NCBI GenBank assembly: GCA_963829055.1
Contig: CAWHHI010000020.1
Coordinates: forward strand, 736,001 to 800,000
DNA from: an uncultured Gemmatimonadaceae bacterium
GTDB taxonomy: Bacteria; Gemmatimonadota; Gemmatimonadetes; Gemmatimonadales; Gemmatimonadaceae
Direction of reading: 5' to 3'
DNA length: 64,000 nucleotides
This document shows positions 27,701-46,107 of this stretch, piece by piece. A program made the position numbers and the translations under genes. Under the pieces are notes generated by a model that was not told the DNA's origin, did not search any database, and saw nothing but the letters and a program-made list of their open reading frames with translations. Within the stretch, counting starts at the first letter, position 1, and each line of letters opens with the position of its first letter.

Positions 27701-28048
27701 GTGGTGGGAAAGACATCCGGTCCGTCCAGGAGCGAGCTGCTCAAGGGCACGCTCGACATGCTCATCCTGCAGACGCTCACCGTGCAGCCGCTGCACGGCT
27801 ACGCGATCGCGCAGCAGATCGAGCTGCTCTCGGACGCGGTGCTCTCCGTCGAGCAGGGATCGCTCTACCCGGCGCTCGAGCGGCTGCAGAAGCGCGGCTG
27901 GGTCACGTCCAAATGGGGCGAGTCGCCCACCGGACGCCGCGCCCGCTACTACACGCTCACCGCCGCCGGGCGCCGTCAGCTCGGCGACGAGATCTCGGAT
28001 TTCGACCGCGTGCTGGTCGCGATCAACCGCGTCATGCGACGCGCGTGA
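27701..28048 (+). CDS. PadR-family regulator (Acidobacterial type)
   Basis: LLKGTLDMLIL...LHGYAIAQ...VEQGSLYPALERL...W..SPTGRRARYY. Confidence 0.92.
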   Translation: MVGKTSGPSRSELLKGTLDMLILQTLTVQPLHGYAIAQQIELLSDAVLSVEQGSLYPALERLQKRGWVTSKWGESPTGRRARYYTLTAAGRRQLGDEISDFDRVLVAINRVMRRA

Positions 28049-28057
28049 GGTGACAGC

Positions 28058-30786
28058 ATGTGGTTGATCGACGTCATCCGCTATCGACTTCGCGTGCTGT
28101 TCAGGCCTAACGCGCACGCCCATGAGCTCGACGAGGAGATCCGCTTTCACCTCTCGCTCGAGGCAATGCAGCGCGAGCACGCCGCGCGCGGCAATCTCAC
28201 CGCCACCGACGCGCGCTGGGCGGCGCGCCGGCGCTTCGGCAACGTCACCACCACCAAGGAAGAGGCACGCCAGATGGCTGGTCTCGGATTCTTCGACACG
28301 ACGGAGCAGGACGTGCGGTTCGCGCTCCGGTCCTTCCGCCGATCGCCAGGGTTCACGGCGGTCGCGGTGCTCACGCTCGCCGTCGGCATCGGCGCGAACA
28401 CGGCGATCTTCAGCGCCGTGAACGCGATGCTCCTGCGGCCATTGCCGTTCCGGGAGCCCGAGCGGCTCATGGACGTGAGTCTCACCGTACCGGCGCGCGG
28501 CGATGTCCCCGGCGCGCGACGACATGCCCGTGGTCGTACCCGAAGTTCGCCGTGTTCCGGAAGGCGCAGACGGTCTTCGAGGACGTGACGCTCTGGATGC
28601 GCGTTCCAGGCGACGGTGCGCGTTGGAGCGGACGCCGAGCGCAGCAACTACGAGTTCATCGACTCGCGCTACCTCCCGACCCTCGGCGTTCAGGCCGGCG
28701 ATCGGACGGAACTTCAGCGCCGAGGAGGACGCGACGTCCAGGCGGACCACGGGTGGCGATCCTCAGCGACGCGCTCTGGCAACGGCGGTTCAACGCCGAT
28801 TCCGCCGTGCTCGGTCGTTCGATCGTGGTCGATGGCAACCCGTTCACGATCGTCGGCGTGTCTGCCGCCGGGATTCCGTGGAGTGTCGGGCAGGGCCGAA
28901 CTGCTCGCTCGCGTTCATGTCGCAGGATCAGCCGGACAGCTCACCGAGCCGTGGTCGCACGGCTACTCCGTGATCGCGCGGCTCAAGCCGGCGTGACGAC
29001 CGGAACGTTCGCGAAGGTCGCGTCCGCCAGCTCGGCGGAGTGGTCGCCGACGCGTACCCGCATCCGGAATCAAGAAGGAGCGCTGGGGCGCCATCGGCCG
29101 CGAGCTCGACGGCACGCGCGTCGATCCGGTCGTGCGGCGCTCGCTGCTCGTCTTGTTAGGCGCGGTCGGGCTCGTGCTGCTCATTGCGTGCGCGAACGTC
29201 GCGAATCTCTTTCTCGTCCGCGCGGCCGGGCGACGCCGTGAGATCGCGGTTCGCCTCGCCGTGGGCGCCGGACGGCGCCGTCTCGTCCGACAGCTGCTCA
29301 CGGAAAGCGTCGTGCTGTCCACGCTCGGCGGGCTCGCGAGCGTCGTCGTCGCGTGGTGGGGCGTGAAGCTGCTCGCCGCGCTCGAACCCGACGACGACGC
29401 TCCGCGTGGAGCGACTCGGCGGCATCGGCGCGATCTCGTTCGAGTCGATCCGGCTCGATCCCGCCGCGTTCGCGTTCGCGGCCGGCGCTCACGATCGTGA
29501 CGGGGCTCGTCTTCGGGCTCGTGCCGGCACTGCAGGCGACACACCCGTCGCTCACCGGCGCGCTTGGAAGACAGCGACGTCTCGCGCGTATCCGGCGTGC
29601 GCGGCCTAACGAGTCGCAATCTGCTCGCGATCGTCGAGATCGCGCTGGCGGTGGTCCTGCTCGCCGGCTCGGGACTCATGATGCGGAGTCTCGGCGAAGC
29701 TGCTCGGCGTGAACCCGGGATTCGACGCCGAGCGGCGTGCTCACGATGCGCTTCAACCTGATCGACGTGGCACCGGATTCGCTCCCGGCGTTCTACGATC
29801 AGCTCGTCGAGCGACTCGGCAGTCGATTCCCGGCGTGACGAACGTCGGCCTCCTCGACTGCCCGCCGCTCAACGGTGGCTGCAGCGGACCGATGACTCGC
29901 GCATCGCGATCGTCCGGCGCCGGTCGCCGGCACGGAGCCGGCCGTCGGCGTCCACTGGGTGACACCGCGGCTGGTTCGCGACAATGCGCGTTCCGCTGCA
30001 GATCGCGGCCGTGTGTTCGCCAACAGCGATCGGCGCGGCACGCAGAAGGTCGTGCTCATGAGCGAGACCGCGGCGCGGACGGTACTGGCCCGGTCAGGAC
30101 CCGATCGGCCGGCCGGTGAGCGTCGGCCAGGGCGGATTCTGGAAGGACACGGCGTATCGTGGTGGGCGTCGTGGGCGACGTTCGGTTCGGGACGCTCGAC
30201 TCGCTGCCCAGAGCCCGATGTCTATCTGTCGTACTATCAGTCGCCGCGCGGCCGGATGATGATGTTCGTGCGAACGGCGGGCGATCCCGCGGTCGCTCGT
30301 GCAGGCGGCGCGTCGCGAGATCGCGGCGCTGGCGCCAGGCGTGCCGCTCTACGATGTCCGGCCGATGCGCGAGCGCGTGGCGGACGCGATGGCGTACGCG
30401 CGGTTCAGCGCGCTCCTGCTGGCGACGTTCGCGGCGGTCGCGCTCGCGCTGGCGGCGTTAGGCACGTACGGCGTGATCTCGTTCGGCGTGTCGCAGCGGA
30501 CGAAGGAGATCGGGGTTCGCGTGGCGCTCGGCGCGACGCGCGGGGACGTGCTGCGCCTGGTCGTCGGTCAGGGCGTCGGGCTGGCGTGGTCGGCGGCGCG
30601 TTGGGTCTCGCGGGCGCACTCGCGACGACGCGGGTGCTCGCGTCGCTGCTGTACGGCGTGGCGCCGTCGGACTCCGCTGACGCTGGCGTCGATCGTGGCG
30701 CTGCTGGTGGGAGCGGTGATCGTGGCGAGCTGCTTCCGGCGCGTCGAGCGGCGAGCGTGCATCCGGCAGACGCACTACGGGGGTGA
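28058..30786 (+). CDS. ADOP-type duplicated MacB/FtsX ABC permease; many frameshifts
   Basis: [66 protein letters not shown]. Confidence 0.9.
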
Positions 30787-31193: not shown

Positions 31194-32612
31194 TTGAACG
31201 CCGCGTCAGGCTCACGAGGTGGACGGACCATCGAACGCATCTGCCGCCAGCGAGAGTTGGCGGGAATCGCTTGTGCGGCTGTGGCGATATTCGCATCGAC
31301 CGTCGCGTGCGGAGACGCGTCGGCGACCGGCGGGTCCGGAGCCGACACACCAGTCCTTCGACTCGTCCGCGGTGACGCGCAGATCTCGGCGGCGGGGACC
31401 GAGCTCGAGTCGCCGATCGTCGTTCGCGCGACGAATGCGCGCGGCAAGCCGCTCGCCGGCATCCCGCTCGACTGGAGCACAGTGGGCAGTGGGCGCGTGG
31501 AGCCGGACCGTCTCGTCACCGATGACTCCGGGCTCGTGCGCGCCACCTGGACGCTCAGCGAGCAACTCGGGCGGAACAGCGCGACCGCCACGCTCGATGG
31601 CCAGGTGGTGACGTTCCGCGCCACGGCCGTCGAGCCGTTGTCGTTAGGCTCGGTGCGTCACCTGCGCCTCGCGACGTTCGACGGCTCGGGACAGCTCGTG
31701 CACCCGGACGTCGCGCGTGTACCGCGGGGTTGGGCACCGGCCCGACGCTTCCTTGCCGTCACGCCGTACCCGGGCGGCGACATCACGCGCGAGCTGCCGT
31801 CGGTGTACGCGTCCGGCGATCCGAGCGAGTGGGTGGCGCCGGACGGCGTGACGAATCCGCTCGTCAGGCCGTGGAAGGGCTATCTCTCGGATCCGGATCT
31901 CGTGTTCGAGCCACAGCGGAAGGAGCTGTGGATGTACTACCGTCACGTGTCGCAGCGGAACACGATCTTCCTCATCGTGTCGGCAGACGGCAGCCACTGG
32001 AGCAAGCCGGTGCGGCTGCTCAGCGCGCCGAATCACGAGCTGGTGTCACCGGCCGTCGTTCGCGTGGACCAGGGGAACTGGCACATGTGGTCAGTGAATG
32101 CGGGCGGGGCTGGATGCTCGAGCACCACCACGGCCGTCGATCATCGGACGTCCACCGATGGTCTGCACTGGTCCGCGCCGAAACCCGTGGGCCTCACCGG
32201 TCCAGACGAAGAGTTCACGCCCTGGCATCTCGACGTGCTGTGGGTGCCCGAGCTCAGCGAGTTCTGGGCGTTGTACAACGAGAAGCCGGCTGGCTCGTGC
32301 GCGACTCCCGCGCTTCGGCTGGCCACGAGCCCGGATGGCATCACGTGGACGACGCGACGAACGCCCGTGCTGCGCGCGGGGGTGAATCCCGAGTTCAAGG
32401 ACATCGTGTACCGCTCGACGTTCGAGTACGACGCGCGGACCGACATGGTGACGCTGTGGTACTCGGGAGCGCGGAGGAGTGGCGATGACTGGACGTGGAG
32501 CGCCGCCGTTGAACGCCGGTCGCGCCGCGCGCTGTTCGAACTGGTCGACACGCCGGAGCCGTTGCGTCGGAGCGCCGCAATGCGCGCCGCCGTGTTGCTG
32601 AACGCGCCGTAG
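31194..32612 (+). CDS. Putative lipoprotein: Ig-like domain plus glycoside-hydrolase-like beta-propeller; start uncertain
   Basis: Lipobox-like STVAC; TDDSGLVRATWTL; VHPDV, YLSDPDL, SADGSHWS, STDGLHWS, SPDGITWT repeats. Confidence 0.65.
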   Translation: MNAASGSRGGRTIERICRQRELAGIACAAVAIFASTVACGDASATGGSGADTPVLRLVRGDAQISAAGTELESPIVVRATNARGKPLAGIPLDWSTVGSGRVEPDRLVTDDSGLVRATWTLSEQLGRNSATATLDGQVVTFRATAVEPLSLGSVRHLRLATFDGSGQLVHPDVARVPRGWAPARRFLAVTPYPGGDITRELPSVYASGDPSEWVAPDGVTNPLVRPWKGYLSDPDLVFEPQRKELWMYYRHVSQRNTIFLIVSADGSHWSKPVRLLSAPNHELVSPAVVRVDQGNWHMWSVNAGGAGCSSTTTAVDHRTSTDGLHWSAPKPVGLTGPDEEFTPWHLDVLWVPELSEFWALYNEKPAGSCATPALRLATSPDGITWTTRRTPVLRAGVNPEFKDIVYRSTFEYDARTDMVTLWYSGARRSGDDWTWSAAVERRSRRALFELVDTPEPLRRSAAMRAAVLLNAP

Positions 32613-32837: not shown

Positions 32838-33236
32838 ATGTCCACTGCGCAGGTGTTCGTTCGGATTGTCGCGATCGCGTTGCTCGTGAGCGCGGTCGAC
32901 GCGATCTCGGGGCGTGTACTTCAGGCGTCGCCTGACCCGAGTCTCGTGCTCTCACTCGGTGCTACGGCGTGGGCCTCCTATCGCCTCGCTGAAGCGGGAC
33001 AGGCGCGATTGTCGTTCCTCGCCGGCGTGACAATGTGGACGGTCTACATGACGGGGTTCGTGGTGTGGGCGTGGCTCCTCGTCGGCTGGAACGGGTCCGT
33101 GCCCTGGCACCCGCGCAGCACCACATGGATGGTTGCTGTCGCAGCCGTGGCGCCGGTCGTGGCCATCGTGGCGCAACTGGCCGGAACGGCCCGCGCGAAA
33201 GTCGCCAAGTCACCCGACCGCGCCCAGCGCGTGTAA
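32838..33236 (+). CDS. Hypothetical membrane protein (about 4 TM)
   Basis: GGAG RBS; hydrophobic 132-aa ORF. Confidence 0.55.
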   Translation: MSTAQVFVRIVAIALLVSAVDAISGRVLQASPDPSLVLSLGATAWASYRLAEAGQARLSFLAGVTMWTVYMTGFVVWAWLLVGWNGSVPWHPRSTTWMVAVAAVAPVVAIVAQLAGTARAKVAKSPDRAQRV

Positions 33237-33263: not shown

Positions 33264-33920
33264 TCACCGGAGCAGCGCGACGCAACACGCGGTGAGCGTC
33301 GCGGCCGCGAAGCACGTCAGAACGATCAGCGCAGACTCAGCGCCGCGCGCCTGAGACGCCGCGCGAACACCGAGCCACGTCAGCACGGCGGCATAGCCCG
33401 AGCGGACGTCGGCCTCGACCGCGAGCACGTGGAGCACCGAGGCCGGGCCACCCGTGACGAGAAAGCCGAGGTTCGTGAACGGCGGGTTGCGGAGATCCAC
33501 CGCTGCCGACTCGGGCAGGAGCGCTCCAGCGACGCCCGCAATCGCAACCGTGGCGAGCGTGTACGCGAACGTCACGTGCATCGTTATGCACCAGGCGCTC
33601 GTCCATGTGAGCCGAGCGGTCCAGAGCATCGACGTGACCCACAGCAACGTGGTGGCAACCGCGACGAGCGGCATGAGGGTGAACACCTGGAACAGCACGC
33701 CCGCCAACACCTTCGCGGCGTTCGTCTCCGGCTGATAGAACACGAACAAACTCCCGAACCGGAGCGCGACGAGCGCAGCGAACGCCACGGCCCACACAGG
33801 ATGCGCGTCGGTGCCCTGGAAGGCGGCAGCGGGATCGATCACCACGTTCGCGAGTCGGTCCCACGCGCCCACGCGCCGGGCGACGTCAGGCGACGGTGAC
33901 ACGGTAGATACGTGAGTCAT
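33264..33920 (-). CDS. YIP1-family membrane protein, last gene of the lanthipeptide cluster
   Basis: DRLANVVIDPAAAF...W.. start; about 5 TM; FTNLGFL; co-oriented with lan genes. Confidence 0.65.
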   Translation of the reverse strand: MTHVSTVSPSPDVARRVGAWDRLANVVIDPAAAFQGTDAHPVWAVAFAALVALRFGSLFVFYQPETNAAKVLAGVLFQVFTLMPLVAVATTLLWVTSMLWTARLTWTSAWCITMHVTFAYTLATVAIAGVAGALLPESAAVDLRNPPFTNLGFLVTGGPASVLHVLAVEADVRSGYAAVLTWLGVRAASQARGAESALIVLTCFAAATLTACCVALLR

Positions 33921-34044
33921 TGCGTGCCGTTCTGGTGGAAGTGGCAACTCATCGTTAGGCGTGACCGAGTCGGACGCCTCTACGAGCCCTACACGAGCGA
34001 CTACACGACAGCCGGATTCCGTGATGCAGCCGCTCGCGCAGTCA

Positions 34045-34341
34045 CTAGCAGCAGCCGATGGACGATGCGGCACAGGTGCCGTGCCACAGCGTCGTGTCGC
34101 ACGCGCCGCAACTGACCTGGTTCGATAGCGTCACCAGAATCGCGCCGGCGCACGGCAAGCTCGTCGTGCAGATCCCGGTCTGCGTGAGGATCGCCACTGC
34201 TCCGCCGGCGGTCTCACCCAGATCCTCGTCGTCCAACTCGATCGTCCCGACTGGAGACGGCGCGAGTCCCTCTGCTTCGTCGCCAAGCAACGCGCGGTAC
34301 TCGATGTCCTTCCATGCTCGTGTCGTGCGAGAGTCGCCCAT
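34045..34341 (-). CDS. lanA: Class II lanthipeptide precursor LanA2 (mersacidin/lichenicidin-type leader)
   Basis: Leader RAWKD..Y...PSPVGTIELDDEDL..AGG; 51-aa core with 7 Cys and 13 Ser/Thr; GGAG RBS. Confidence 0.92.
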   Translation of the reverse strand: MGDSRTTRAWKDIEYRALLGDEAEGLAPSPVGTIELDDEDLGETAGGAVAILTQTGICTTSLPCAGAILVTLSNQVSCGACDTTLWHGTCAASSIGCC

Positions 34342-34495
34342 GGTGTACTCCGAGAATGGTCGATGGTTCACAAATGCGCTTCGTGGGAATGCTCTGTCGT
34401 TTCGCTGCTCCACTGCCGGAACGCGAAGTACAACTGGCCAAGGTCACGCACCTCCGGCGTTAGGGTGGCAAACGGCGACTGACAGTCGTCACCGG

Positions 34496-36767
34496 TCAGA
34501 TGGAAGCCCGCCACCCCCGGTGCCCGTGCTGCTCCATCCAACGACCGCGAGCGAGAGCCGCGCCGGCGCCGGGCCGCCGATCGCTCGCGAGTGAGCCCTG
34601 CTCCGCCGCAAGCGCGGCGTACGCGCCGCCGAGTGCCGTCAACTGCTCGTGCGTACCGCGCTCGACGACGCGTCCGCGCTGGAGGAGAAGGATCTGATCC
34701 GCCGACCGAACGGCCGTCAGGCGGTGCGCGATGACGACGCGGGTGCAGCGCAACTGCTCGAGGTTCGCGATGAGGCGCTGTTCTGCCGCTACATCCAGGT
34801 GACTGCTCGCCTCGTCGAGCATGAGGATGTCCGGGCGCGACACGAGCGCACGCGCGATCGCGAGACGCTGCCGCTGCCCACCGGAGAGGTTGCCACCGCT
34901 CTCGGCGAGCCGAGTCTCGTAGCGCATCGGCATGCGCTCGACGTCGTCGTCGAATCCGGAGAGTCGCGCCGCCTCGATGACCTGCTCGAGCGGTGCGTCC
35001 GGCGCGTTGAGCGCAATGTTGGAGCGGACCGTGCCTCCGAAGAGGGCGACGTCCTGCAGGACGATACCGCACCGTCTCCGCACGACGTGCGGGTCGAGCT
35101 CCGATAGCGGGATGCCGTCGTAGCGCACTTCTCCGGCGGATGCCTCGTAGAGCCCGAGAAGCAGCATGAGCATCGTGCTCTTTCCAGAGCCGGTCGGTCC
35201 GACGATCGCCGAGCTTTTCGCCGGGCGCGACGGAGAAGGACACATCGTCGATGATCGCCGGGCCGTCGGGCGCAAAGCGGAACGTGAGCCCGCGGACATC
35301 GATCGATCCTTCGAGGTGCGGCGAGATGACGTGCACCGAAGGCGCGGCGACACGCGATTCCGGCTCGGCGTGCAGAACGTCGATGAGGCGCTCGATGTAG
35401 GCGTCGAGAAGTTGCAGCTGCTGCGAGCTCTGGACGAGCGCCATGAACGGGGTGAGGAACGACGCCGCGAGGGCGCTGAGCGCCAGCATCGTTCCAAGGG
35501 GAAGTTTGCCCGCGAGCACCAGCGACGCGCCGTACCACAGCAGCGCGAGCGGCGACGCCGATCGCAGCACACCTAACGCGATGTCCACTTTCGCGGTGAA
35601 ATACCCGCGCTCCATGAACACCGCGAGCTGGCGTCGAAACAGCTCGATCCACCGGTCGTACGCGCGGGCCTCTGCCCCCGCCGCCTTGAGATGCGCGATG
35701 CCCTTCATGAGCTCGACGAGACAGCTCTGCTCGTCCGACTTCGCCGCGAGCATCCGCTGTCCGAGGTCGCGGAGCCGAGGCAGCGACGCGAGCACGAGGG
35801 CGGCCTGCACCACGGACAGGCCGACGACGAGAAGAGCGAACGTCGGCGCGATGACGAGGAGCACCACCAGGTAGAGCAGCGCGAACGGCCCGTCGAGCAT
35901 CACCGACAGCAGCTGCGTGGTGAGGATGTCGCGGATCATCGTGTTGCTCGACAGCCGCATGAGCAGGTCGCCGCTGCTGCGCCCCTGGTAGAATCGGTAC
36001 GGCAGCCGCAGCAGGTGGTCGAAGAAGCCTTCCGTGAGCCGCGCGTCGAGGCGCGTCTGCAAGCGCAGCATCACGGCGCTCCTGACGAACGACGTTGCTG
36101 CTCGCGCCACAACCACGATCCCCATGCCTAACGCAATGACCGACAGCGAGAGCGACGAGCCCGGCGGTGCGACGTCGTCGACGATGAGCTTCGTGAACAG
36201 CGGCATGGCGAGGCCGAGCGCCTGGAGCAGCACCGACCCGGCAATGATCTGCGCCAGTGCGCCCTGCGCACTCAAGTCGTGGAACATTGCCGCGAGATAG
36301 TCGAGCCACAGCGGCACTCGGCGCCTGGGGCGTGAGACGAGACCCGGGCCGGCTCCGCACACGAGCGTCACGCCACTGTAGCCAGCCAGGAAGTCTTCGG
36401 CGGTCAGGATCTGCCGGCCGAGCGCGGGATCAATGATCGTCACGCGCTTGCTGCTCCACCGCTCCACGACGACGAAGTGCCGCGCTTTCCAGTGCGCGAT
36501 GGCCGGGAGGGCTACCGTCGCGAAGTCCGCCGGTGCGACGGCGACGGGTTGCGCGATGAGACCGAAGCGCTCCGCCACTGTAGAGAGGGCGCGGAGTCGG
36601 ACCCCATCGCGACCGCCGCCGCATAACGCGCGACACTCGGACGCGACGTCATGCACGCCGTGCGCGGCGAGCACCATCGCCAGACATGCTGCTCCGCAGT
36701 CGTCCGCGCCGAGCTGCTGGATGAAGGGCACGCGTCGCCGCGTGCGGGTCGCGATTCGCTGCGTCAT
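34496..36767 (-). CDS. lanT: LanT: C39 peptidase-containing ABC transporter; frameshift near 35215
   Basis: QQLGADDCGAACLAM, AHWKARHFVV, IIDP; GPTGSGKST, LSGGQRQR, LMLDEA; ATGA overlap with lanM. Confidence 0.92.
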
Positions 36768-39700
36768 GGCTCGACTCGCGCCAGTGGGTTTCCGCGAGGT
36801 GCCTCCAACGAGAGCAACGACGGCACCTGTTGCGTGGCCCCGATGCGGAGAAGGCCGTAGCCGATGCCCGCGAGACCCATCATGAGTCCGGGCGTCTCGA
36901 CGCCGCCTGGGATGCCGCACCGCCAATCACCTCGAGCGATGCGTTCGACCAGGCGAGACGACTCGAACGCCAGCCGGCTTTCCCACGGGCCGCGGGTCCC
37001 TAGCTCGCGCGCGCGAAGGAACAGCTCGAGGTTGCCCAGATCGCCGTGACACAGTGAATCGTTGGAACCGAAGCCGGCGCTGACGGTGGAGGAGAGCGCG
37101 GTCTCGAGCTCTGTGCGGGACGCGCACGCGAGATCGGATGTGGCGTCATGTTGCAGCGTGATGAGTCGGGCCAGACCGACGCCGGGCGCGCCGTGACACC
37201 ACGACCACATCATGGCCGGCGGTCCTGGCGGCGCAGCGCGATCGAGGATCCGGTAGTCGGGCCAGTTCTGCCGATCGGAGTCGAACGTGTCGCGCTCGTA
37301 GCGCAACGCGGCGTGAGCAACCGCAGCGCACCGAGGATCGTCCAGAATGGCGCCGGCCGTAAACAGCGCGGCGGCAATGCCTGACGCGCCGTGCGAGAAG
37401 CCCGTGAGCGGTTGCGTGTGCGTCCAGCGATGACTTCCAGGCGAGACCACTCTCGATTGGGTGGGTGGAGTCGAGCAGGCGCTGAACCGACACGCGCATG
37501 ACATCGTGCACTGCCGCACCTGGCCGCGCGCGGTGCAGCGCCGCGAGCGCGAAGATGAGCCCAGCGACTCCGGTGATGATGTCCAGCTCACGATCGACGG
37601 CCGCCTCCTCACGCACGCGAGCCGCTACGGCGTCGGCGAAATCGAGGAGGGCATGATCTTGCCACAGCACGCCCACGTGGGAGAGCGTGTAGATCGCCCC
37701 GCCCAGTGAGCCGAACGCCCCGATCGCGCCTGGCGTCAACGCGCCGCTGCTCTGTTCCGGATCGAGAAGGAGACGGGCACGAGTCGTTACCTGCTCGAGG
37801 ACGTCGCGCGAGAGTTGCTCGTGCTCACGATTGCCGGTGATGTCAGCCAGGTACGCGAGGAAGAGCGCGACGCCGAGCGTGCCGCCATACAGATCCGATC
37901 CGATGGGCTGGATCACCCAGTCCCGCTCCTGCGCGAGCGTGAGCCCGAGCCAGCTCAAACGCGAGCTCTGTCGGAGCGCCAGCGCGCTAATGCGCCGTGC
38001 GATGCGCTCAGCCGCGCCGATGCACGCGTCACGGGATGGCGGCGCCGACGTTGCGTTAGGCACGGCGCGTGGGGCCGGTGCGGAGCCGGACACCGCCACG
38101 TGGCGACCGGGCGCCAAGCCCACGAGCGAGGCGCGGACGACCCATTGTTGCCGGACCAGGTCGTCTTCCGAAAGTGACGTGACGCGCGCAAGAGCTGCGT
38201 CGAGTCCCGACTGCTCGAAGAAGTCCGCGATGCACGCGCCGTGCGTCGTCAGCAGATCTCGGCTGTCAGGACGGCTCGTGAACAGCGGGACGTCACCGGC
38301 CACGAGGTCCGCGTGCTCGTAGGCGACGACGGACTCCAGCTCCGGTCGCGACGGCACGGCCACCCACAGCCGATCCAGCAGCCGATCGCGGTCGAGCGCG
38401 TCCCTGAGGACGTCCGGGTGGTAGCTCTCGAGCAGGATCAGCGCGTACTGGCGCGTGGGGCGCAGCACGACGCGAATGGGCGCCGCGGCAAAGCGGCGTA
38501 TGGGACCGCCGTCGGCCAGCAGCTCGTCGCGATGGCGCAGGAGCAGCCGGTACGTGGACGTGAAGCCAGCCAGGATGCGATCCACGTGATGCGTCGGATC
38601 GATGATCTCGTTGCCTAACGCTGGGCGGTTGTTGGACGCGGGGAGATCAACGAAGTCGCGCACGAGCCGCATCTCGTCAGTGCCCGCGCCCACCACCACG
38701 GGGAACCGGTTCGGCGTCCGCTGTACGCCACCACCGCCCACCGCGCTCATGTCGAGGCCAGACGACTCGCGATTGCCGAACGCTCGGAAGGGCAGCACGC
38801 CGGCGCGCAGCACCGAATGCTGCAGCGCGCTCCAGCCGATCCATTCCGGGTCATCGATCGGGGGCGCGTGTGACCGTTCGCGGATGACACAGCGCCTCGA
38901 GGTCGATCAACATCGGATGCTCGCCGGACGCGATGACGTTTTCGTAGTGGAAGTCCGTCGCCTCCAGCGCGTGCAGCAGCGCGAGGTACGACCCGAAGCG
39001 TTCGTAGAAGCGCGTCACCTCATCGGGCGTGGTGCACGGCTCCTGCGCCGCGAACTCGGCCCAGCCATGCGTCTCGGAGCTCACTGTGCGCACTGCGTGC
39101 AGCGGTGGCGATTGCCCGCGCTCGTTCGCCCAGGCCACGAGCTCCGAAAAACACAGGTCCACCGCCAGCGAGCGTGGCTTGTAGACGATGCGCTTCCCCG
39201 ACGAGAACGCGGCGATCAGGACGGACCGGCCGTGACGGTGTGTGTCACCGGCGCCCGCGGTGAGCTCGGTCAGTTGTCCGAGATGCTCGCCACCGGCAAG
39301 GTCCGCCGACAACCGCCCCGCGTCACGCGCGAGGTGTTGGAGAAACTCGGCCGCGAACTCCTCCCAGTAGCCGGACGCCGTCACGATCAGCCGCGCGAGC
39401 ACCGGGTACTCCTCGAGAATGCGCTGACGCAGATCGGTGGTGCGCAGCAGCCGCGCGAAGTCGGCGTAGCGTGCTTCGGGCGTGTCGCCGGCGAGCCTCC
39501 CTTGAACGCGCGCAACGTTCAGCTCGAGGATCCCGACTTTCACGGATTTGTTCACGAGCTGAGCCCAGAGCGCCGGCTCGAACAGGCGGGTCGCGTGTTC
39601 GGGATCGAACGGCGCGTCAGGGTGCGCTTCTCGAATCCGTCGCGCTCGCTCGAACAGCGCGGTCAGCCCGGCGATGACGAACGGTCCAACGAACGCGCGC

Positions 39701-40104
39701 GCGAGCTCGGCCCCGGCCGTATCCTCGACGCCAGAATCGCCAGTAGCCGACGCGGCGTTGCCGTGGGCTTGAGCGCGGCCAATCGCCGCGACCCAGCTCG
39801 GCGGCGCGTCGACGATCGCGCTCGGACCGTCGCTCGACTCCGCGAGCAGCGACGTGAACTCCGCTTCGGTGAGTGCGTCGAGACGTAGTCGCCGTTCGAG
39901 GATCTCGGGGCGATCGAACGGCCGTTGCTGGCGCCATCGATCGAGTCGGCTCGATTGCCGAGCGTCGGTTGCAGCCTCCGTGGAGAGTGCGGTCGATCCT
40001 CTGGCGTCGCAGATCTCGTCAGGTTCGTGTCGCTGCCTGGCGCGAGCGCGTTCGGTGAGCGTGAACGCCGGAGACCACCAACGCGTGGGAGTAGTGCGGA
40101 GCAT
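36764..40104 (-). CDS. lanM: LanM class II lanthipeptide synthetase; frameshifts near 38880 and 37430
   Basis: GDTH, YKPRSL, TDFHYEN, IDLE in the dehydratase; DLYGGTLG, GFSHGASG, WCHGAPG, LCHGDLG, GLMMGLAGIGY in the cyclase. Confidence 0.95.
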
Positions 40105-40180
40105 GTCGGTTGGCTGTGTGGGTTGAATCGAGGCGCGTCGGTCCGACGCGCCTCGCTCGCTGCTCATCCGTCAACCGCGA

Positions 40181-40471
40181 TCAGCACAGAGATGCGCCGG
40201 TGAGAACGATCGTGATGCAGAAGCAGGTGCAGTACGGGAACCCGGCGGTGACGTCGCAGTACCCGGACTGGGTAATGCCCTTGCAACAGCCGAGCGTCTC
40301 GAGGTACTGCGTGCCGTCGACGTTGACGGGGGAGCCGCCCGCGGCGAGCCCGAGCTCGTCGTCGGTGACCTCGATGACGCCAACGGGATTGGGCGGAAGC
40401 GTGGCTGCGTCGCCGAGGGCGGCGCTGTAGTCCGCATCCTTCCACGCGCGGACGATCTGATCAGGTGTCAT
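40181..40471 (-). CDS. lanA: Class II lanthipeptide precursor LanA1
   Basis: Leader IVRAWKDADY...LPPNPVGVIEVTDDEL..AAGG; 50-aa core with 7 Cys and 10 Ser/Thr; AGGAG RBS. Confidence 0.92.
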   Translation of the reverse strand: MTPDQIVRAWKDADYSAALGDAATLPPNPVGVIEVTDDELGLAAGGSPVNVDGTQYLETLGCCKGITQSGYCDVTAGFPYCTCFCITIVLTGASLC

Positions 40472-40576
40472 CGGTCTCCTCTTTCCTCAGAGTGGGCGGA
40501 GTGAAGCCAAGCACGGTGGCTCGGCGGAAAGGCCGAAGACGCGGGGGCACGCCGCGGCTTCGTACCGGCGTGGCCG

Positions 40577-41071
40577 TCAGGAGCGCGGCAGTGCGTAACT
40601 CGCGAGCGAACGCGACCCAAGCGCGGCAGTAGCGGCGTAGTTGGAGCCGGCGGCGAGTGACAGACAGTGACCCTCGTGGCACCGCGATAGGTGAGCGACG
40701 ACTTTCGGACCGCCCGTGTCGACGCTCGTGATCACGAGCTTCAGCGGGTCACTTCCGCCCGTATCGATGGCGGCAACCTGGCCGGGTTTCACGTACGCCC
40801 GCGCCGAGGATGGCAGCATGAGCAACGGCGTTAGGCCGTCCGCCGCTGACGGTGATGCGACGACGACGCCGCGTTCGGTCCGCGGCACGCGGGTATGTCC
40901 GAGCGCCAACGCCGCGACGACGGTGGACAGCACGAGGGCCCACAGCAGCACGATGTAGGGCGAGCGCAGCAGGAGCGGCAGCGGCAGGTCGCCCTGCGTG
41001 ACTCGCTGTTGCTGGATGAGCAGTGCGCGGGTGTTTCGCTGCTCGTGCGAAGGGCGGAGCGTTGTTGTCAT
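40577..41071 (-). CDS. Short single-TM protein resembling a truncated HlyD/membrane-fusion accessory
   Basis: TM helix then VPRTERGVV and LP....YVKPGQVA segments; first gene of the lan operon. Confidence 0.5.
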   Translation of the reverse strand: MTTTLRPSHEQRNTRALLIQQQRVTQGDLPLPLLLRSPYIVLLWALVLSTVVAALALGHTRVPRTERGVVVASPSAADGLTPLLMLPSSARAYVKPGQVAAIDTGGSDPLKLVITSVDTGGPKVVAHLSRCHEGHCLSLAAGSNYAATAALGSRSLASYALPRS

Positions 41072-41203
41072 GCCCGACAGCAAGGCATCTCCCGGGCCTT
41101 GCGACGCGAGCCGCTAACTCACTGCGGCCGCGTGATTTCCGAAATCGTGCGTTCGTTCGTTAGGCGTCACGTAACGCGTGGCCGGCTGCGGGGCGGCTGT
41201 CAC

Positions 41204-41237
41204 TTCACACCGGTATTCACACGGGCGTTCACACCGG
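41204..41237. promoter_or_regulatory. Three direct repeats TTCACAC(C/G)GG at 12-bp period
   Basis: 41204-41213, 41216-41225 and 41228-41237, between the activator gene and the lan operon. Confidence 0.55.
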
Positions 41238-42135
41238 GAGTACCGCTCCGGCGGCGCGCACGTACTCGTGAATCGTCTTGCGTGACACGCCGAGTCGCGC
41301 GGCCGCTACCGTCTTGTTCCCGCCGGCGTCGGCGACGGCCTGCAGAACGAGCGGTGACGTCAGCGATCCGCGTCGCGTGCCGCTGGCTGTTCGCAATCGC
41401 ACGAGGTGGCCCGTGCAGTGTGAGAGCGAAATGACGTGTGCGCCGGCGGCGTCGATGAGCAGTCGCTCGACGGCGGCGACGAGCTCGCGGACGTTGCCCG
41501 GCCACGCGTCGTTTTCCAGTGCGCGGAGGAGCGCGTCATCGAACGTCGGCGGCCTGTCAGCGTAGCCGCAGCGCGGTGCGCGGACGCGCGATGACGTGGC
41601 GTACGAGACCCGCGATGTCCGACACACGTTCGCGGAGTGGCGGGATGCGGACGGCGAACGCGCTGATGCGATCTCTCAGGTCCGCGAGAAATCGATCCTG
41701 CTCGACGAGTGTGTCGAGGCCTTCGTTCGCCGCGAAGATGAAGCGGACGTCACCACGGACCGGGCGGTCGCTGCCGACGGGATAGAAGTCGCCGTCTTCT
41801 TCGACGATGCGGAGCAGCTTGCCTTGCACGAGCTTGGAGGCCTTGCCGATTTCGTCGAGGAACAGGGTGCCACCGGACGCGGAGACGATCGCGCCGGCGC
41901 GTGCCGAGTCGGCGCCGGTGAACGCGCCTTTCGCGTGGCCGAACAGGTCGGAGCTGACGAGCGCGTCGTCGGCCGCGGCGAGCGAGAGCGTGCGGAACGG
42001 ACGGTTCCGTCGCGGCGAGAGGTCGTGGACGTGTCGAGCGAGTACGGTCTTGCCGCACCCGCGCTCACCCTCGAGCAGGATGCACGTGTGATCGTGGGCC
42101 GCATAGCGGCGCAGCTGCGCGAGCGCGTCGCGCAT
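41229..42135 (-). CDS. Sigma54-dependent activator (AAA+ and Fis HTH) lacking an N-terminal sensor; frameshift near 41570
   Basis: GERGCGKT, GAFTGA, LFLDEIG, WPGNVREL, GGNKTVAAARLGVSRKTI. Confidence 0.9.
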
Positions 42136-45539: not shown

Positions 45540-45815
45540 ATGTACTTCGAGTGGGACGTCGAGAAAGCGGAGGAGAACTTCGTCAAACATGGCATCGATT
45601 TCGAGGACGCCATCCGGATTTTCGACGGGCCGACAGTCGAGGGCGAGGATGGCCGGCGAGACTACGGGGAAACCCGGATGTGGGCGATTGGCGCGTTAGG
45701 TCCTCGTCTCGTCACGGTGATCTACACCATGCGCGGCGACGTCTGCCGCATCATCTCCGCTCGAATGGCTTCGAGGCATGAGCAAAAAACGTATCGTAAG
45801 AGTCAAAGCGGGTGA
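45540..45815 (+). CDS. brnT: BrnT-family toxin
   Basis: FEWDVEKAEENFVKHGIDFEDA...DYGETR...RIISAR. Confidence 0.92.
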   Translation: MYFEWDVEKAEENFVKHGIDFEDAIRIFDGPTVEGEDGRRDYGETRMWAIGALGPRLVTVIYTMRGDVCRIISARMASRHEQKTYRKSQSG

Positions 45816-46107
45816 GCAACGCCGCGGGCGCACGGACTTCGCGCGGCTCGACCGGATGACGGATGAAGAGGCCGAGGCAGCGGCGTTATCGGATCCGGAC
45901 AATCCGCCGCTGACGGACGAATGGCTCAAGAACGCAAAGTGGGTGGAGCGCCCACCGAAGGAGGCGATCTCCATTCGCATCGACGCGGACGTGCTGGCGT
46001 GGTTCCGCGCGCAGGGGAGCGGCTATCAATCGGCGATGAACGCGGTGCTGCGGTCGTACGTCGAGCATGCCCGCGTCGCCCGTGGCCGCCGGCCATCCGG
46101 TGGATAG
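45778..46107 (+). CDS. brnA: BrnA-family antitoxin
   Basis: DPDNPPLT; KEAISIRIDADVLAWFRAQGSGYQSAMNAVLRSY. Confidence 0.92.
   Translation: MSKKRIVRVKAGEQRRGRTDFARLDRMTDEEAEAAALSDPDNPPLTDEWLKNAKWVERPPKEAISIRIDADVLAWFRAQGSGYQSAMNAVLRSYVEHARVARGRRPSGG

Follow-up and report, generated by a model that had tools for sequence, protein, structure and literature searches.

A class II lanthipeptide gene cluster in an uncultured Gemmatimonadaceae bacterium that probably encodes a roseocin-type peptide pair

Roseocin, a two-component lanthipeptide of Streptomyces roseosporus, is made by one class II synthetase (RosM; WP_010071701.1 in PMC10027976) from two dissimilar precursors, Rosα and Rosβ, that lack a lipid II motif. 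According to the accessible parts of the published accounts (PMC10027976; 10.1101/464644; 10.1101/2025.10.27.684949), the family comprises types 1 to 3 and has been delimited within Actinobacteria; the two peptides act on Gram-positive bacteria almost exclusively in combination, and their mode of action has been described as possibly lipid II-independent. Here we describe a locus at positions 33264–42135 of a 64,000-nucleotide stretch of DNA (hereafter the window; assembly GCA_963829055.1, contig CAWHHI010000020.1, positions 736,001 to 800,000) from an uncultured Gemmatimonadaceae bacterium. An earlier annotation made from the letters of this stretch (the original prediction) had placed there a class II lanthipeptide cluster with one LanM and two very long, dissimilar precursors. 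By its gene content the locus is a class II lanthipeptide gene cluster, and its precursors probably yield a roseocin-type, likely synergistic antibacterial pair made by a single LanM. The original prediction had regarded cytolysin-type systems as the only two-component systems with a single LanM, which needs correction: roseocin and bicereucin have been cited beside cytolysin in this respect (10.1101/2025.10.27.684949).

Read along the minus strand from 42135 to 33264, the cluster consists of genes for a σ54-type activator, a 164-residue open reading frame (ORF), lanA1, lanM, lanT with a C39 peptidase domain, lanA2 and a Yip1-like gene. No minus-strand gene in this interval is left unaccounted for, and the seven genes and the class II type agree with the original prediction. 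The G+C content of the cluster is 67.9%, against 66.6% for the genome, a 7.78 Mb assembly in 20 contigs that is 86% complete and holds exactly two matches to TIGR03898 (lanA1 and lanA2) and one lanM. The alpha-type precursor gene lanA1 (40181–40471, minus strand) and the beta-type lanA2 (34045–34341, minus strand) score 48.2 and 31.8 bits on TIGR03898 (cut-off 23.5). Their leaders, of 46 and 47 residues, both end in GG, leaving cores of 50 residues for A1 (40333–40184) and 51 for A2 (34200–34048) with 10 and 13 Ser/Thr, respectively, and seven Cys each; their calculated masses before modification are 5214.35 and 4985.32 Da. Family, core lengths and Cys counts are as predicted for the window; seven Cys are not the norm for A1, in which the extra Cys37 is shared by only 7 of 65 non-redundant homologues, six being usual.

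The synthetase gene lanM (36764–40104, minus strand; corrected start at about 40104) encodes a CHG-type class II enzyme of 1112 residues when intact. In the window it lies in three pieces that together tile TIGR03897, and an intact allele scores 899.9 bits on that model. The catalytic motifs of the dehydratase and the Zn-cyclase are present (YKPR, DFHYEN, IDLE, R..T, SHG, WCHG and LCHG), and the enzyme can be aligned to CylM and to LicM2, the closest LanM with a solved structure. The start of lanT (34496–36767, minus strand; 756 residues when intact; PF03412, PF00664 and PF00005) overlaps the lanM stop, and in two metagenome contigs (L020 and L021) the Cys/His/Asp residues of its C39 peptidase and its ATPase motifs are intact. 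Leader, Ser/Thr/Cys-rich core, GG site and C39 exporter, features expected of a class II cluster, are all present. Stand-alone hits that cover just the cyclase region of LanM, away from any lanM, were seen at G001:C391:1569-2756, G004:C67:19363-20556 and G112:C1:3733970-3735193.

Kinship with roseocin is suggested by motifs in both cores. Residues 8–17 of the A1 core (TQYLETLGCC) fit the published N-terminal alpha motif S/TxxxxTxGCC, and residues 41–51 at the C-terminal end of the A2 core (GTCAASSIGCC) fit the published beta motif GS/TxxxxS/TxGCC. When each core was shuffled 200,000 times, the motif appeared at that end by chance in 0.07% (alpha) and 0.0065% (beta) of cases. In a control set of 401 Acidobacteriota genomes, none of the nine precursors parsed from 15 leader-type matches carried the roseocin motifs, so they are not generic to the TIGR03898 leader family. 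Neither core contains the CTxTxEC motif, as had been read from the sequence originally.

Database searches returned 56 relatives of lanA1 and 20 of full-length lanA2, and a profile of the beta core alone matched 116 proteins at E-values up to 10; the beta motif is present in 19 of 20 homologues. A plasmid search gave only three cyanobacterial records, which matched at low identity and largely in the leader region, and the ESM Atlas yielded only clusters that were unnamed or of the TIGR03898 type. Across 54 beta and 65 alpha non-redundant homologues, the ring-forming positions are near-invariant. Alpha Glu12 and Asp27 are conserved in 65/65; a role of Glu12 as a family-wide residue of the lipid II type was considered and dropped, the position being invariant in the clade of the window but Leu in the second and third genera that carry the cluster. 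A beta variant with a 44-residue core (L057:798, plus strand) lacks the stretch around S26 and keeps all seven Cys, which may reflect a genuine deletion or an assembly artifact.

Nuclear magnetic resonance (NMR) placed the rings of Rosβ at 1-5, 11-15, 16-22, 18-25, 24-32 and 29-33. Five of these six are predicted to map onto conserved A2 residues, the register having been set by eye from the C-terminus with the published numbering and the ring assignments being made at the sequence level. The predicted rings are A (T13–C17, both in 54/54 beta homologues), B (S30–C34, 53/54 and 54/54), D (T37 or T36–C43), E (T42–C50, both 54/54) and F (S47–C51, 54/54 and 53/54), with T42–C50, S47–C51 and C43 in exact register with Rosβ. 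C43 is itself found in 54/54 together with Thr or Ser at position 37, and the donor could be T36, which is in register and is Ser/Thr in 26/54, or T37 (54/54). Two further A2 rings, T6 or T8–C11 and S26–C31, are predicted from the invariant additional C11 and C31 and the conserved T6, T8 and S26. Ring A in the form of two dehydrated residues, two further residues and Cys (Dhx-Dhx-x-x-Cys) was rejected as a universal beta feature, since 24 of 94 further beta matches fail the N-terminal pattern, many having Gly at the second position. In A1, T8 and T13 are predicted to form a nested N-terminal pair of rings with C16 and C17. The alpha homologues have six conserved Cys matched by seven conserved Ser/Thr, so the peptide would need no disulfide.

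The named genomes that are syntenic and closest to the window are Gemmatimonadota assemblies, with a flanking M20 peptidase 90–92% identical to that of the window, and two syntenic assemblies in the LanM tree are labeled Gemmatimonadaceae. The beta gene occurs in five of seven genomes of the same genus. Among 401 genomes sampled across the family, nine carry it, in 3 of 77 genera; a phylum-wide sample gave 4/401 genomes, all Gemmatimonadaceae. The order alpha-lanM-lanT-beta-Yip1 was found in 14/14 distinct loci of the clade long enough for both precursor genes, a set that includes several near-copies and excludes two duplicate contigs. Four genomes of two further genera share the order alpha-lanM-lanT-beta-membrane gene in other surroundings, and the second-genus beta cores are shorter (43 residues in the three read). 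In an unrooted quick tree of 28 LanMs, the 13 enzymes of the alpha-lanM-lanT-beta-Yip1 layout form one side of a branch with 99% support. One genome of the same genus (G004) keeps the ABC permease, the activator and the peptidase on one contig with the slot occupied by different genes; the cassette has therefore been gained or lost at this site. Near-identical copies of the cluster occur in 20 sequencing runs that belong to 16 studies; 19 of these runs sampled soil or rhizosphere and one sampled freshwater sediment. No RNA run is among the listed holders of these copies, which is uninformative on expression. In more distant sets, which were enriched by the query, the beta motif was present in 33 and the alpha motif in 8 of the best 150 clusters (P0077–P0226), and either motif in 12 of 41 weaker metagenome loci (L059, L062, L065, L066, L070, L071, L074, L078, L081, L090, L095 and L099). 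Of these, L081 was assigned by reading its sequence, L071 and L078 contain several alphas or betas, and L059 has two LanM matches. A poorly sampled Gram-negative lineage and a probable two-component product, both put forward in the original prediction, agree with these comparisons.

If the peptides are made as the genes suggest, the adjacent activator would drive a single transcript from a σ54 promoter, and LanM would dehydrate Ser/Thr and add the Cys thiols, with six to seven thioether rings predicted for each peptide. On their way through the inner membrane both precursors would lose their leaders to the C39 domain of LanT, which would cleave at GG, and the hydrophobic pair would then attack the membranes of Gram-positive soil competitors. 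Dehydration and cyclization by LanM and cleavage at GG by C39 domains are established for the family.

The window sequence itself holds four frameshifts, as a decaying pseudogene cluster would. They are single-base insertions, one in lanT, two in lanM and one in the activator. The original prediction took those in lanM and lanT for probable sequencing errors, which agrees with intact alleles and run contigs, and overlooked the one in the activator. Independent contigs from public runs, not every run covering every site, lack the extra base near 35211 (lanT) in five of eight runs, that at 38869 (first lanM site) in five of eight, that near 37419 (second lanM site) in six of eight and that at 41585 (activator) in all four runs checked for it. 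These counts come from other runs and not from reads of the window's own sample, and for lanT, depth without the deletion is seen in three of eight runs (X3, X4 and X16), to which other ABC genes may contribute. Against decay, L020 and L021, 97.8% identical to the window, encode an intact 1112-residue LanM and 756-residue LanT with all catalytic motifs, and L021 also an intact 301-residue activator. The window assembly is moreover locally error-rich, since the neighboring 5.1 kb differs from L020 by 64 gap positions. On these sequence comparisons all four frameshifts are assembly errors and the cluster is intact; we reject the pseudogene reading as largely refuted by the intact alleles and run contigs, and regard real frameshifts in these three genes as extremely improbable.

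Several points weigh against a roseocin-type antibacterial pair. Peptides, expression and activity are here predicted from the genes, and the proposed kinship with roseocin is drawn from the motifs and from printed sequences compared by eye. The alpha motif in its strict form (Thr at position 6) is present in only 21/54 homologues, and in 54/54 when Ser is allowed, and the homologue sets were partly chosen with patterns that contain the motifs. Among the 116 matches of the core-only beta profile, a search that depends on shared five-residue words and returned mostly unnamed proteins, no actinobacterial roseocin precursor was recognizable by length or name; RosM was not among the 28 enzymes of the LanM tree, a quick, unrooted one from which duplicates and near-copies were excluded. 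Ring C of Rosβ is not found in A2, the Cys position being occupied by His or Ser (this ring has been published as not always conserved in the roseocin family), and the equivalent of the disulfide Cys13 of Rosα is Gly19 in 65/65. No LanFEG genes were found in the operon at 33264–42135, the family scan covering 14 ORFs, and no adaptor of the NHLP type scored above cut-off in the genome. In favor of the pair, the cores are under purifying selection, with ratios of nonsynonymous to synonymous substitutions of 0.26 for beta (178/496 pairs) and 0.24 for alpha (12/45 pairs), the pairs not being mutually independent; this fits a fixed target and not prochlorosin-like diversification. Both lanthipeptides might be made without being a synergistic antibiotic, each acting singly or serving the producer in signaling, at its surface or in its periplasm. 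We hold this to be unlikely but not negligible: the missing LanFEG and the lack of a full adaptor for crossing the outer membrane would fit such a role, as would a published remark on weak activity outside Actinobacteria and cores that are hydrophobic and near-neutral to acidic (one basic and three acidic residues in A1, none and one in A2), but one alpha is strictly paired with one beta across three genera, the same pair of motifs defines a system with shown synergy, and Yip1 genes, in the accessible part of one report, also accompany bacteriocin clusters (PMC11580447). It is still less probable that the likeness to roseocin is convergent, or that a GCC ring module has been reused by an unrelated family with its own ring topology. 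The core profile without recognizable actinobacterial peptides, the differences between A1 and Rosα outside the motif and the frequency of the beta motif among distant relatives could be read this way; against it, both motifs occur together, each at its correct end, the leaders belong to the same family, the LanM is likewise of the CHG type, and by eye the likeness extends beyond the motifs to an Actinomyces beta and a Catellatospora alpha. A roseocin-type pair made by one LanM thus remains the reading we prefer. Because the profile search listed no recognizable actinobacterial precursor and the tree contains no RosM, we call them roseocin-type and not members of types 1 to 3.

The activator gene (41229–42135, minus strand; 301 residues when intact, with the spurious base at 41585) encodes an AAA+ domain (PF00158) with GAFTGA and a helix-turn-helix (HTH_8), and has no N-terminal sensor domain. 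Downstream of it lie a 23-nucleotide conserved non-coding element (41149–41171, minus strand), a candidate binding site of the activator, and a candidate σ54 promoter, GG-N10-GC (41084–41099, minus strand), which follows the σ54 promoter consensus. In the alignment of 14 loci, two of them without a cluster, the central part of the element is kept in all 14 and GG-N10-GC occupies the same aligned position in all 14. The loci are kin, and the loose pattern is expected 0.28 times per 330 nucleotides by chance, so only its fixed position counts. A scan for σ70 promoters found none, and terminators were at background. The activator is also present in two genomes of the same genus without the cluster (G003 and G004), which keep it and the promoter elements before other genes; this weakens its standing as a cluster-specific gene, and in the second and third genera no activator lies beside the cluster. 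Within the genus, the sensor-less activator, the 23-nucleotide element and GG-N10-GC (also at L108 and L109) head a variable cargo slot, filled by the lanthipeptide cassette in some genomes and by unannotated proteins in G003 and G004.

The small ORF (40577–41071, minus strand; 164 residues; corrected start 41071) has one hydrophobic helix. Its ATG lies 13–14 nucleotides behind the GC element in all 12 cluster loci; no Shine-Dalgarno sequence precedes it in the window, so that its start would be leaderless-like. Its length is 164–186 residues in four loci and 69–77 in the other eight of 12, with the hydrophobic helix kept, and no copy was seen in the other two genera. Searches of Pfam and NCBIfam gave no informative match and a PDB profile search a single one at E 1.6. 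The original prediction had called this gene similar to a membrane-fusion protein; we abandon that label, as comparison by BLAST with a genuine NHLP secretion protein gave no match and no family or convincing PDB support was found. Downstream of lanA2 is the gene for a 218-residue Yip1/YknW-like membrane protein (33264–33920, minus strand; corrected start 33920). The Yip1 likeness originally proposed holds in weak form: the protein reaches 21.5 bits against a curated cut-off of 28.6, and its YknW match is also below cut-off. A membrane gene lies 3′ of beta in all three genera, the second-genus copies having no Yip1 match. The accessible part of a recent report notes Yip1 genes in leaderless and circular bacteriocin clusters as well, as possible immunity or transport factors (PMC11580447), and the Yip1-like protein is the likeliest candidate for self-protection or an export helper.

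A convergent gene for a 132-residue membrane protein (32838–33236, plus strand), a possible accessory gene, adjoins most clusters of the window's genus and travels with the cassette there. It was found in G001; with this query there was no match in G003, G004, G112 and G528, and it has no family match. Behind the cluster in many loci of the genus lies, also convergent, a 472-residue Big_1/BNR-like protein (31194–32612, plus strand). Two plus-strand genes at 27701–30780 show many frameshifts against L020, probably assembly errors. We take them to be a PadR-like gene and a large ABC permease, the latter from a family represented by dozens of copies in each genome. Two small adjacent ORFs of 91 and 109 residues at 45540–46107 (plus strand) presumably resemble a toxin-antitoxin pair of the BrnT/BrnA type.

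A more specific reading, which we offer tentatively and would not yet call probable, is that the locus represents a distinct Gemmatimonadaceae branch of roseocin-type systems. One enzyme would install thioether rings, about 13 in all, in two peptides of 50 residues with no disulfide; the alpha would have conserved acidic residues, a Yip1-like protein would stand in place of LanFEG, the target would not be lipid II, and the branch would be the tip of a large, unrecognized non-actinobacterial family of soil bacteria. If so, the pair would rank with the first antibacterial peptides to be defined from Gemmatimonadota, a phylum that abounds in soil and whose chemistry is little known. About 65 alpha and more than 100 beta natural variants offer a ready structure-activity series, and a cultured species with a beta-type precursor is on record, so that a native producer may be testable. 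Our literature search, which left most subscription literature outside, found no description of the family in Gemmatimonadota.

Among other two-component systems, cytolysin and bicereucin share with the locus one LanM, two peptides and the absence of a mersacidin-type lipid II motif, and the predicted Dhx-Dhx-x-x-Cys ring of A2 resembles that of the large cytolysin subunit. The cytolysin peptides are similar to each other, whereas the cores in the window are only 22% identical, and the consulted literature describes no GCC motifs for cytolysin or bicereucin. Haloduracin, lichenicidin and lacticin 3147 are likewise class II systems with TIGR03898 leaders and an alpha/beta logic; they differ in having two LanMs and the CTxTxEC lipid II motif, neither of which occurs in this cluster. 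Prochlorosin-type systems have a CCG-type LanM and many hypervariable cores, in contrast to the CHG motif, two precursors and conserved cores of this cluster. Within the same phylum, at least one supplement row of a study lists a class II precursor of Gemmatimonas aurantiaca T-27 (PMC7268733) with the beta-type end WHGSCWASTIGCC, a shorter core without the TSxxC ring and a leader cut placed elsewhere; the main text of that paper, as accessible, has no match for ‘Gemmatimonad’. In the accessible part of another (PMC11251773), Gemmatimonadetes appear as members of a mixed class II subfamily.

The roseocin family itself is closest. Type 3 clusters of Micromonosporaceae, described bioinformatically in the accessible part of PMC10027976, also have a long Cys-rich alpha core with a TExLxTLGCCxGFT start and a beta that ends GTC...GCC, but they have two LanMs instead of one and a different C-terminal half of alpha. 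By our count a Micromonospora alpha core has 47 residues and nine Cys, and by a rough automatic cut 15 of 30 measurable beta-motif cores among the distant relatives have at least 45, so the very long cores noted originally, although correctly measured, are not unprecedented. Similarly, neither core equals a characterized compound in the consulted papers, as expected of the new polycyclic lanthipeptide first proposed, but the scaffold carries known roseocin-family motifs; the design of a single LanM and two dissimilar precursors without a lipid II motif is already known from roseocin, and the thioether chemistry of LanM is standard. Compared with roseocin proper (type 2), the host is a Gram-negative Gemmatimonadaceae bacterium, the cores have 50 and 51 residues against 35 and 33, and the precursors flank lanM-lanT, with a Yip1-like gene instead of RosEFG and a σ54-type activator. 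Relative to Rosβ, A2 is extended by 12 residues at the N-terminus and its linker is longer, an extra conserved Cys lying in each of the two, and ring C is absent; A1 lacks the Cys of the Rosα Cys13-Cys33 disulfide, as do type 1 and type 3 alphas, and has the conserved Glu12 and Asp27, acidic residues that Rosα does not have. In common with types 1 and 2 are the CHG-type LanM, the NHLP/TIGR03898 leaders and, within the 86%-complete genome, the single LanM. As in roseocin, alpha has no CTxTxD/EC lipid II motif, and the precursors are about as dissimilar (36% identical here, 37% in roseocin). By eye, TSLPCAG and DTTLWHGTC in A2 correspond to TSLPCAG and DTALWGSC in the printed Actinomyces beta, and TQYLETLGCCKGIT in A1 parallels TEYLWTLGCCGGFT in the Catellatospora alpha. 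The two GCC ring modules and rings A and B would then be kept across phyla and the disulfide, ring C and LanFEG would not, and the Gemmatimonadaceae pair would extend the roseocin family beyond Actinobacteria.

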